Below, piece by piece: positions 57,664-60,600 of a DNA stretch of 64,000 nucleotides. A model generated the notes under the pieces. The model saw only the letters and a list, made by a program, of their open reading frames with translations. It was not told the DNA's origin and did no database searches. The position numbers and the translations under genes were made by a program. Source of the stretch: Malacoraja senta (taxonomy: Eukaryota). Within the stretch, counting starts at the first letter, position 1; every line of letters starts with the position of its first letter. The stretch is taken from contig CM075987.1 of NCBI GenBank assembly GCA_038087875.1, forward strand, positions 17,982,001 through 18,046,000, read 5' to 3'.

Positions 57664-60600
57664 CCCACCCACTTCCCTGTACAGCACCTATTCCCACTAA
57701 TCGCCAACCCCGATGAAGAACCCATAGTAAACATGATGCTGGGGGACACCAGAGTTCCGTTTTTGATTGATACAGGAGCAACCTCATCTACCCTGAATCA
57801 GGAGCTTGCGGCATCTCTTGGAGTTCCCATATCAGACCATGTAACACGATTATCAGGATTGGACGGGAAAGTACGGTGTTACCCACTAACTCAGCCTCTG
57901 ACTGTAACCTGTGGACAGGAACAATGTACCCTCCCTTTTTCCATTACACCATTTCTTGGCTGCAACCTTGCAGGCAGAGACCTATTGATAGGATTAAAAG
58001 CGGGAATTATCTGCACTGACGAGGGAATTCACCTCCAGACCCAGAAGATGATGCACACACACTTCCCAACACCTCAATGGTGGGCTATTGATCTTTTGTC
58101 AGCACCAGTCTTTGGAAATACACCCGATCCACATGTGACCTTATGTTATGATCCTACGGGTTGCAATCCCGAAATGGAAGATTACTTTAGTTCACTGATA
58201 GGGGAAGCAACTAGGGTCCGCTTGATAGGAACAGTGTCAGGCGAACCTGGCACTGCCTTAATCGTGCAAGTGGAGGAAGGGTTGTGGAAACAGAATGTTT
58301 CTCTAGTGGCACCTCATGTAACCACCTCAGTGAGGGCAGACCACTCAGCAAAAGAGCTGGGGTACCTCACCTACGAGTTATGCAACAAAGCAAGTAACAT
58401 ACTGGGTGAGCAATATTTTTCTCAGGGAACGTTGGAATATTGGCAAGAGAACCAGGTCGTTGAAGGAGTTATCAGTCGCCATCAGCCAACAGCAAACGAC
58501 ATGGACAAACATCAGATTTGGGCGACATCACCGCATGAGATAGGACTGACTTATTGTGTACCTGTAATGATCACGCTTAAGCCGGATGTCCGCCTCCCTG
58601 CAGTTCCCCAATATCCTTTAAAACCAGAAGCAGTGGCAGGAATACAACAGCTGGTGCAGTCTCTTTTACACCAGGGTATATTGGTGCAGTGTCACTCACC
58701 ATGTAACACCCCGATCTTCCCGGTACCCAAGCCTGGACGCTCAGAGTGGAGGCTAGTTCATGACCTCCGTGCAATTAATGAGATCGTTACGCCTCTGCAC
58801 GCCATCATACCGAATCCCGCAACTATCCTGAGCCAGGTTCCCGCCTCTGCGACAATCTTCACAGTTATTGACCTCCAACATGCATTCTTTTCAGTCCCAC
58901 TGCATCCCGATTGCCAATACCTTTTCGCCTTTACATACGAAGGACAACAATATACATGGACACGCCTGCCACAAGGTTTTGTACATTCGCCCACTCTGTT
59001 TTCCCAAGTACTAGCAGACCAGTTAAAGACATTAACCCTCCCACTAGGCTCCATTGTAATTCAGTATGTTGATGATTTACTTCTGGCCAGCTCTGATGAG
59101 GCCAGCAACATTACTGACACTGCAAAGTTATTAGAAGCCTTACATGCTTGGGGGTATGTGATCCCTGGAGGAAAGTTAAAGAGGGCAAGAAGGAGGTTAA
59201 ATTTCTTGGAGTTATGATCAGTGCCACTGAAAGAGCACTTACTCCAGCAAGAGTGGACCCTATTGTACGATACCCAAAACCAGAAACCTGCAAACAAATG
59301 AGAGCCTTCTTGGGGTTAGTGAACTTTTGCCGTCAGTGGATTCCCAATGTTGTACTTTATACGAAGCATCTATCACCACTGGCGGCTGCAAATGCCGAAT
59401 GACATTTTTCCCTCGATGAAAAACAGACTGAGGCCTTTATAGCCTTAAAAGATGCATTAGCCTCCGCCCCAGCCATCGGAAGACCACTGTATGACAGATC
59501 ATTTCAGCTATATGTAACAATAATTCAAGACTGTGTATCAGCCGTACTGACGCAACACCATGGGGATGTTAAACGACCAGTAGCTTACTTCTCAGTTCGC
59601 CTGGATGCAGTAGCACGCGGCTACCCCCCTTGCACCCAGATTTTGCCTGGTATACATGCCGCTATCTCAGCTGCTGCAAACATAACTTTACATCAACCAG
59701 TAATCGTATTTACAACTCATTGTGTCGCCGCATTAATGAATGCAAGCCAAACGAAATATCTCACCCAGGCACGCCTGGGCCGCTATGAACTGACATTGTT
59801 GAATAATCCAAATTTGAACTTTCAGCATTGTTCTACAATAAATCCATCTGCCTTTTTGACGGAGCCACCCGAGCCTTGCACAGAGCCGCCCCACAATTGT
59901 GAGATGGCCAATGACTTATTAACAAAAACACGGGAAGGATTGTCTGATATCCCATTGGAAGGCAACATACCATCATGGTTTGTCGATGGCTCCTCTATGG
60001 TTATCCCTGAAACAGGACAGCGGGCTATGCAGTAGTAAACGGGTCACAGATGATTTTGGAAGAAGGAAGGTTTCAGTTTCCGTTATCAGCGCAACAGGCA
60101 GAATTATTTGCCCTAACTCGAGCCTGCATATTAGCAACGGACAAACAAATTAACATCTATACCGATTCCCGATACGCCTTCGGCGTTGCTCATGACTTTG
60201 GTGCTCTCTGGCAACACAGAGGATTCCTGACCTCGGCAGGAACACCCATTAAGAATGCCCTTTTTGTGCGTAATTTGCTTACGGCGTTGATGCTACCAGA
60301 TCAGCTGGCCATTATTAAATGTACTGCACACAAGGGTGCTGGGGACCCTATAGCAAAAGGTAATGAATTGGCCGATAGTGTATCCAAGCAAGTAGCCTGT
60401 ACATCCAAATGCGTGGTGACATCTGGTAAACAGATACTAGCAAATAGAACGGTCCTGCCAGATATGAGGGAGGTATGTACATTACAGAGGGACGCCTCTG
60501 ATAACCGAAAACAACTATGGAAACAAGAGGGCTGTGCCATTGACTCCACCACAGGTCTTTGGCTCACCCCGCTTGGGCAAGTTTGTGTATCTGATGCATT

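Follow-up and report, generated by a model that had tools for sequence, protein, structure and literature searches.

Enzymes of the two-histidine (2H) phosphoesterase superfamily are used by RNA viruses and phages to destroy 2'-5'-oligoadenylate (2-5A) and cyclic-oligonucleotide alarm signals. Among retroviruses, the dUTPase of betaretroviruses and non-primate lentiviruses is a small nucleotide-metabolising enzyme that lies inside pro/pol and is packaged with the replication enzymes, and apart from dUTPase we know of few extra enzymes in retroviral Pol. Here we describe an in-frame insert between the protease and the reverse transcriptase (RT) of an endogenous retrovirus (ERV) in the skate Malacoraja senta, found in a stretch of 64,000 nucleotides (assembly GCA_038087875.1, contig CM075987.1, positions 17,982,001 to 18,046,000 of the forward strand; the whole stretch is called the window below). 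We suggest that the insert is probably a genuine, compact 2H phosphoesterase domain, with a predicted fold closest to the catalytic domain of vertebrate CNPase, and that it would likely act as a 2',3'-cyclic phosphodiesterase in virions.

Modules of the 2H/CNPase type are already known from fish retroviruses, whereas we did not find their in-frame position in Pol of cartilaginous fishes in the accessible literature. The accessible text of one article (PMC9503650, citing Mazumder 2002) reports 2H domains from some retroviruses, with walleye dermal sarcoma virus (WDSV) as an example, so that the sequence-only reading of this DNA that our analysis followed up had good grounds for its remark that such domains had been noted in fish retroviral polyproteins. 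According to the available part of a review (PMC4977317, after Basta et al. 2009), some teleost epsilon-like ERVs include additional open reading frames (ORFs) for CNPase or a macro domain. These elements are, like the one described here, fish class I ERVs with a CNPase-type module, and the review speaks of 'additional open reading frames'. Neither the occurrence of the domain in cartilaginous-fish ERVs nor its placement between protease and RT was found described in the main texts covered by our full-text literature search; the accessible text of a paper on elephant-shark ERVs (PMC4422223) mentions no extra Pol domain, nor does that of PMC6001957 in a search by term. A functional study of a retroviral 2H domain was likewise not found in the accessible literature.

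The pol frame of the skate element extends from stop to stop over 57664-59217 on the plus strand and encodes the protease, then about 150 residues that belong to no Pfam family, and then RT. Its parts are the following.

57715..58008, plus strand: retroviral aspartyl protease (LIDTGA ... GRDLL), frame residues 18-115 (Pfam RVP E 8.4e-8, Asp_protease_2 E 2.6e-9)
58072..58488, plus strand: compact 2H phosphoesterase domain with predicted CNPase-like fold, residues 8-146 of the 165 residues modelled (AlphaFold2, Foldseek, VIA, conservation)
58132..58140, plus strand: first H-x-T motif (HVT in PHVTL; His28, Thr30), from the sequence, on predicted strand 28-34
58315..58323, plus strand: second H-x-T motif (HVT in PHVTT; His89, Thr91), from the sequence, on predicted strand 89-94 and followed by a conserved AK(E/D)LG
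58489..58545, plus strand: linker to the RT N-terminus, modelled at low confidence (predicted local distance difference test, pLDDT, 48-55 past about residue 146)
58723..59208, plus strand: RT core with YVDD, frame residues 354-515 (Pfam RVT_1 E 8.7e-26; profile match to RT chains of murine leukemia virus, MLV, E 4.5e-55)

The first histidine codon (in PHVTL) is at 58132 and the second (in PHVTT) at 58315, a distance of 61 codons, HSAKELG comes after the second motif, and both histidines are intact, just as the sequence-only reading had it. The reading frame of the 2H block is uninterrupted in the window copy, and RT starts in the same frame with IWATSPHEIG. When the RT columns were kept in the profile, its alignment with the MLV RT chains began at the 'W-A-x' stretch, so the extra block is truly inserted after the protease and ahead of the RT N-terminus. 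The frame, the Pfam spans of RVP and RVT_1 and the start of the MLV RT alignment therefore all agree with the earlier claim of about 150 additional in-frame residues after GRDLL. We point out that the pair of HxT motifs is by itself weak evidence and within chance, as two or more HxT/S motifs were seen in 30% of 100,000 shuffles of the 160-residue domain, and two or more of the stricter H[VILM]T in 0.7%; it is the conservation and the predicted fold that carry the case.

AlphaFold run from the single sequence was unusable (pLDDT 34). With a 20-row alignment, AlphaFold2 gave a model of pLDDT 85.7 and predicted template modelling score (pTM) 0.81, in which both motifs are on predicted strands and these strands would belong to a bilobed 2H fold. 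A Foldseek search of the PDB with the model returned 49 matches at E<=1e-3, and those listed were the catalytic domains of mouse and human CNPase (1woj for human) and goldfish RICH (2i3e), at probability 1.00 and TMq 0.54-0.67 and with a best E of 2.1e-5; the next match was a fungal RNA kinase entry (6u05, E 1.7e-3). VIA-align, run against 48,161 representative chains, likewise placed mouse CNPase first (2xmi_A, Z 14.1, root-mean-square deviation 3.2 over 145 residues, model residues 2-146 against chain residues 160-378). Ranks 2-14 went without exception to 2H enzymes, among them bacterial, archaeal and plant enzymes of the CPDase/LigT type, phage Acb1, rotavirus VP3, ns2 of mouse hepatitis virus, Usb1, ASCC1 and AKAP18, at Z 7.7 to 5.0, a range that the tool calls common (Z under 8). 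The 2H-type domain that had been proposed from the letters alone is thus supported by a CNPase-first fold match together with a conserved HxT pair, and the comparison suggested with it, against LigT, AKAP7, CNPase and ns2, does yield a predicted 2H fold, with CNPase well above the other members.

Among predicted viral structures (BFVD), the best matches were walleye epidermal hyperplasia virus 1 (WEHV; Q9WHI8, E 4.1e-9) and WDSV (A4GTG3, E 3.1e-7), followed by an unnamed entry (Q2VF30_1). The likeness to the walleye viruses is structural (TMq 0.63-0.64 to the BFVD models, about 20% identity), and their proteins were not retrieved by sequence searches from the domain. Their BFVD entries are labelled 'Envelope polyprotein', with the aligned target range not displayed, whereas the skate domain is in Pol. 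Look-alikes found with a language model were phage clusters; 24 of 30 named matches fell in the set of PF08302 (tRNA_lig_CPD), a family found on 18% of the listed cluster's members, and one cluster carries PF22547 (2H-SAK).

The retroviral domain and CNPase, its best structural match, both have a pair of HxT motifs and a conserved Trp. Over the aligned span the retroviral domain is the shorter one by about 74 residues, most of them ahead of the first motif, and its two histidines are 61 residues apart compared with the 79 implied for CNPase by the mutant names H230 and H309 in PDB titles. The CNPases that we found carry PF13671 N-terminally; the retroviral domain is without an N-terminal P-loop domain and is instead embedded in a viral polyprotein, with the protease upstream and RT downstream. 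With ns2, the C-terminal domain of rotavirus VP3 and AKAP7 it has the 2H superfamily and presumably the two-histidine chemistry in common, but the Z scores are about 5.0-6.9 as against 14.1 for CNPase and the genomic context differs. Retroviral dUTPase offers an analogy only, its fold and chemistry being unrelated.

The same domain is found in Pol proteins labelled Leucoraja erinacea, Amblyraja radiata, Mobula hypostoma, Scyliorhinus torazame and Pundamilia nyererei, and the ERV protein of the window matches an entry labelled Amblyraja radiata at 96% identity. In the cichlid cluster, whose members are labelled Pundamilia or are unnamed, with one further RT-only member labelled Haplochromis burtoni, the Pol proteins have the same order of protease, 2H domain and RT and the same motifs as the skate ERV, although in the cichlid version about 20 additional residues precede the first motif. 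Four cichlid-cluster proteins cover the domain; both histidines are present in three of them, and the fourth has Tyr instead of the first. In an alignment of 20 sequences including three cichlid proteins, H28, T30, Y33, G64, A69, H89 and V94 are the same in every sequence, T91 is conserved at 90% or more, and the mean column identity is 46%; His28 and Thr30 were also invariant in a second alignment. Four of the 17 matches in the representative library (P0013, P0015, P0016 and P0019) were dropped by eye as chance matches to long repeat proteins with 6-13 matched stretches. We also noted an NCBI gene model, 'zinc finger protein 271-like, partial [Amblyraja radiata]' (P0003), that starts inside the ERV 2H domain and continues through RT into a long C2H2 array, and which is either an annotation chimera or an ERV-zinc finger fusion transcript.

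Within the skate assembly, a 178-residue query had at least 151 matches at E<=1e-3, selected from 477 first-look candidates and ranging in identity from 100% to about 30%, and 10 of the 30 best matches lie in open frames of 1332-1338 residues. We examined 90 loci, registered by profile: the 30 best, 20 diverged ones with long open frames and 40 whose match spanned both motifs. Both motif positions were covered in 89 of these, and 86 of the 89 have HxT/S at both, including copies at about 25% identity to the window; where a copy was frameshifted, credit was given to whichever frame held the motif. By identity to the window copy, both motifs are kept in 29/29 copies at 90% or more, 13/13 at 60-90%, 7/8 at 40-60% and 37/39 below 40%, or in 44 of the 47 copies that are less than 60% identical, the copies in which they are not both intact being L063, L069 and L083. 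This survey, which the sequence-only reading had called for, speaks for conservation of the motifs among related ERVs. Separately, about 3 kb ahead of the start of the window, the minus strand holds a frameshifted copy of the domain with 61-62% identity (C11:17978608-17979139).

The ratio of nonsynonymous to synonymous substitution rates (dN/dS) of the domain was 0.18-0.39 in eight unsaturated pairs that were compared alongside the flanks, for which it was 0.09-0.68 (protease, six usable pairs) and 0.07-0.24 (RT, three usable pairs). These values indicate that the domain was constrained while the viruses diversified, somewhat more loosely than protease and RT, and we find it conserved by purifying selection in numerous diverged retroviral lineages of the skate genome. 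RNA reads matching 57400-59300 at a likeness of at least 90% numbered 29, 37 and 146 in three runs from three studies of one organism, filling 27, 27 and 30 of 30 bins, mostly 95-99% alike and in both mate orientations; a fourth run, from another organism, gave 8 reads in 6 bins. The reads are low-level RNA from related copies, with DNA carry-over possible, and given the many near-identical copies they are uninformative on the window locus.

Several results weigh against a CNPase-type enzyme and have to be set beside this evidence. At the level of sequence, the insert has no Pfam match at E<=10 save for DciA, which we took as chance, and PF13563, which was matched by one of the 20 alignment members at E 0.04, below the cut-off. 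The PDB sequences gave no match with the single sequence (phmmer) or the domain profile (hmmsearch), and the 20-sequence profile that includes the cichlid proteins gave chance matches only (E>=0.09). The Pfam CNPase model PF05881, which matches neither the insert nor its relatives, picks up in the genome only the gene for CNP of the host (C10:11893998-11896086, where the matched exon is 86% identical to a CNPase labelled Amblyraja radiata) and none of the ERV copies. With hhalign the domain profile reached a probability of 4.2% (pairwise E 0.0098) against a CNPase alignment of 16 species, and of 1.2% and 0.2% against single host CNP exons. The weak alignment to the 16 species does put both histidines and the conserved Trp in register with HCTT, LWP and HITL of CNPase; the presumed superposition of His28 and His89 on the catalytic histidines of CNPase comes from this register and from the spacing only. 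With regard to selection, the loci were partly picked for open frames, which biases the count of copies toward intact motifs, and a ninth, very close pair had a dN/dS of 0.79, with six distant pairs saturated. Finally, a common fold would not by itself fix the substrate. In its predicted fold the domain resembles CNPase; by sequence it lies outside the Pfam CNPase family, and it does not stem from a recent capture of the gene of the host.

We nevertheless favor a CNPase-type enzyme, which we picture as follows. The domain would be made only within Gag-Pro-Pol, by readthrough of the TGA that separates gag from pol, and would enter assembling virions in small amounts beside protease, RT and integrase, where it could be cut free by the protease or be kept on the N-terminus of RT. 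As the domain is in frame in Gag-Pro-Pol, packaging into virions, already put forward in the sequence-only reading, can fairly be expected. It would most likely be a metal-independent 2',3'-cyclic phosphodiesterase with the two histidines as general acid and base and would, like CNPase, open the 2',3'-cyclic phosphate of nucleotides or of RNA ends. The likeliest gain for the virus may be the clearing of products of host RNA-cleaving defenses or of cyclic-nucleotide signals, in the producer or the newly infected cell.

A different substrate is conceivable on the same fold. The domain could be a 2',5'-phosphodiesterase that degrades 2-5A and blocks OAS/RNase L like coronavirus ns2 and rotavirus VP3, with which it has the superfamily and the HxT pair in common; VIA matches VP3 (6o3v Z 6.7, 4rpt Z 6.3), ns2 (4z5v Z 5.7) and AKAP18 (2vfk Z 5.0), and 51 exon-level matches to PF10421 (OAS1_C) suggest that the pathway probably exists in the host. 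We consider this unlikely, since these Z scores are less than half that of CNPase and within the common range of the tool, and since the Pfam and PDB profile searches matched none of those families by sequence. The fold is far nearer to CNPase than to the 2-5A-degrading enzymes, and this shifts the odds toward 2',3'-cyclic-phosphate chemistry and away from 2-5A cleavage. Degradation of cyclic di- or oligonucleotide messengers, for example of 2'3'-cyclic GMP-AMP (2'3'-cGAMP) made by cGAS on reverse-transcribed DNA, is in our judgement also improbable. For such a role, comparable to that of phage Acb1 or the penguinpox 2H cGAMP phosphodiesterase, speak the fold matches to Acb1 (7t27 Z 6.7), to a Burkholderia-phage phosphodiesterase (9q2y Z 6.5) and to the penguinpox enzyme (9bkq Z 4.7) as well as Acb1 models in BFVD at E about 1e-2, and the location beside RT would fit a counter to the sensing of viral DNA, but the Z scores are again low compared with CNPase. 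A search of the genome for the STING ligand-binding domain gave no match, a result that the tool rates as uninformative. As a separate observation, the host genome holds a tandemly expanded OAS locus, mostly at C4:6100653-6374548 and C5659, which is notable for a cartilaginous fish.

Two further explanations were considered. Cellular CNPase has been reported to bind retroviral Gag, and the insert, of which 145 residues align to a span of 219 in the CNPase chain, is the shorter of the two, so it could be imagined as a catalytically idle spacer or a module for binding RNA or Gag that merely keeps the 2H fold. We find this very unlikely: the alignment has 160 columns, of which 7 are invariant and 10 near-invariant at the mean identity given above; these include the four positions of catalytic type, which survive in nearly all copies surveyed (86/89) and which a pure spacer would not need. 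Hardly to be expected, lastly, is that the retrovirus family recently captured the CNP gene of its own host. The host does have such a gene and CNPase is the closest fold by a wide margin, yet the hhalign probabilities above amount to no detectable similarity to the host exons and a very low one to the CNPases of the 16 species, and both teleost ERVs and lineages with about 25-30% identity to one another already carry the domain. This spread over deeply diverged lineages and teleost elements means that any capture was ancient.

Going beyond the favored 2',3'-cyclic phosphodiesterase, we speculate, with considerable doubt, that a CNPase-type 2H enzyme is an ancient movable module of fish retroviruses, kept to disarm innate defenses based on nucleotides or RNA cleavage at the time of reverse transcription. 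The position between protease and RT may have become fixed in retroviral lineages of sharks, rays, skates and cichlids, and the module may be in a different polyprotein in the walleye viruses. Candidate targets may be products of the OAS/RNase L system, expanded in the host, or cGAS signaling. If true, this would be the first Pol-embedded immune antagonist of retroviruses.

The element that carries the domain is, judged from its sequence, a class I (gamma/epsilon-like) ERV, all of the features of this class being present: a CCHC gag, a DTG protease, an RT closest to that of MLV, RNase H, an integrase with an MLV-type C-terminal domain, and gag and pol in one frame across a stop codon. Gamma- and epsilonretroviruses make pol by readthrough of a stop codon, and the single in-frame TGA between gag and pol implies the same here. 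The remaining parts of the provirus, including its putative long terminal repeat (LTR), are these.

54393..55099, plus strand: putative 5' LTR, recognized by eye from its TG...CA ends, a TATA-like 'TATTTAAG' near 54900 and an 84-nt tandem duplication at 54542-54707, within the putative U3
55927..57663, plus strand: gag, starting MGNALD, split over two frames (55740-57044 and 57100-57663; ORF list)
about 57547-57597, plus strand: CCHC zinc knuckle in gag (Pfam zf-CCHC E 2.3e-5)
57661..57663, plus strand: TGA stop of gag, in frame with pol (sequence and frames)
59118..61663, plus strand: remaining pol, covering the connection of RT to RNase H, RNase H itself and an integrase whose C-terminal domain is of the MLV type (Pfam RT_RNaseH_2, RNase_H, rve, Integrase_H2C2, MLVIN_C)
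61542..62624, plus strand: env-like ORF with many N-x-S/T sites and no Pfam family, its 3' part running into unrelated minus-strand sequence (ORF list)

The provirus of the window is degraded and 3'-truncated. Its pol is broken three times: the frame changes within 59118-59217 and again within 60011-60035, and between these an in-frame stop lies at 59400-59402. The truncation follows from the entry of the env-like ORF into unrelated minus-strand sequence. A second copy of the putative 5' LTR, or a 3' LTR, was found neither in the window nor in the 10 kb past its end, so that dating by LTRs is not possible.

Other repeats lie in and around the provirus. Three copies of a 69-nt unit are present in the leader between the putative LTR and gag (55625-55863). 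A repeat of about 160 bp that looks like a short interspersed element (SINE) abuts the putative LTR at 54228-54391, with further copies of 82-98% identity at 47782-47903 and 53698-53859 and four more within 10 kb past the window end. Minus-strand pol fragments of a related older ERV lie on both flanks of the provirus, at 53848-54225(-) and 62943-63892(-), the RT fragment on the right sharing 66% identity with the plus copy; as judged by eye, the fragment on the right stops at '...YVTIIQ' and the left one picks up at the next residues of the plus copy. From this split continuity, the plus-strand provirus and its neighbors appear to be nested in an older inverted copy. Ahead of the inverted RT fragment is a proline-rich tandem repeat of PLPRHQ and TSPAPP peptide units, in two frames (63534-63892(-)). 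An open frame of 279 residues at 62246-63085(-), which overlaps and ends the env-like ORF, has no Pfam match at E<=0.01 and by eye resembles the C-terminal part of ORF2 of a long interspersed element (LINE). Farther upstream, a long C/T-rich tract of low complexity at 50843-52300 was reported as 69 and 42 overlapping 'copies'.

In conclusion, the insert is of value mainly as a tractable candidate for a retroviral enzyme that is old and widely distributed in fishes. A phosphodiesterase-type domain with two histidines, kept under selection in many fish retroviral lineages, would represent a second kind of extra Pol enzyme besides dUTPase, and its compact CNPase-like fold of about 140 residues would be useful for structure-function work. 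We suggest that a retroviral 2H enzyme packaged beside RT could reveal an axis of defense and counter-defense in early vertebrates.

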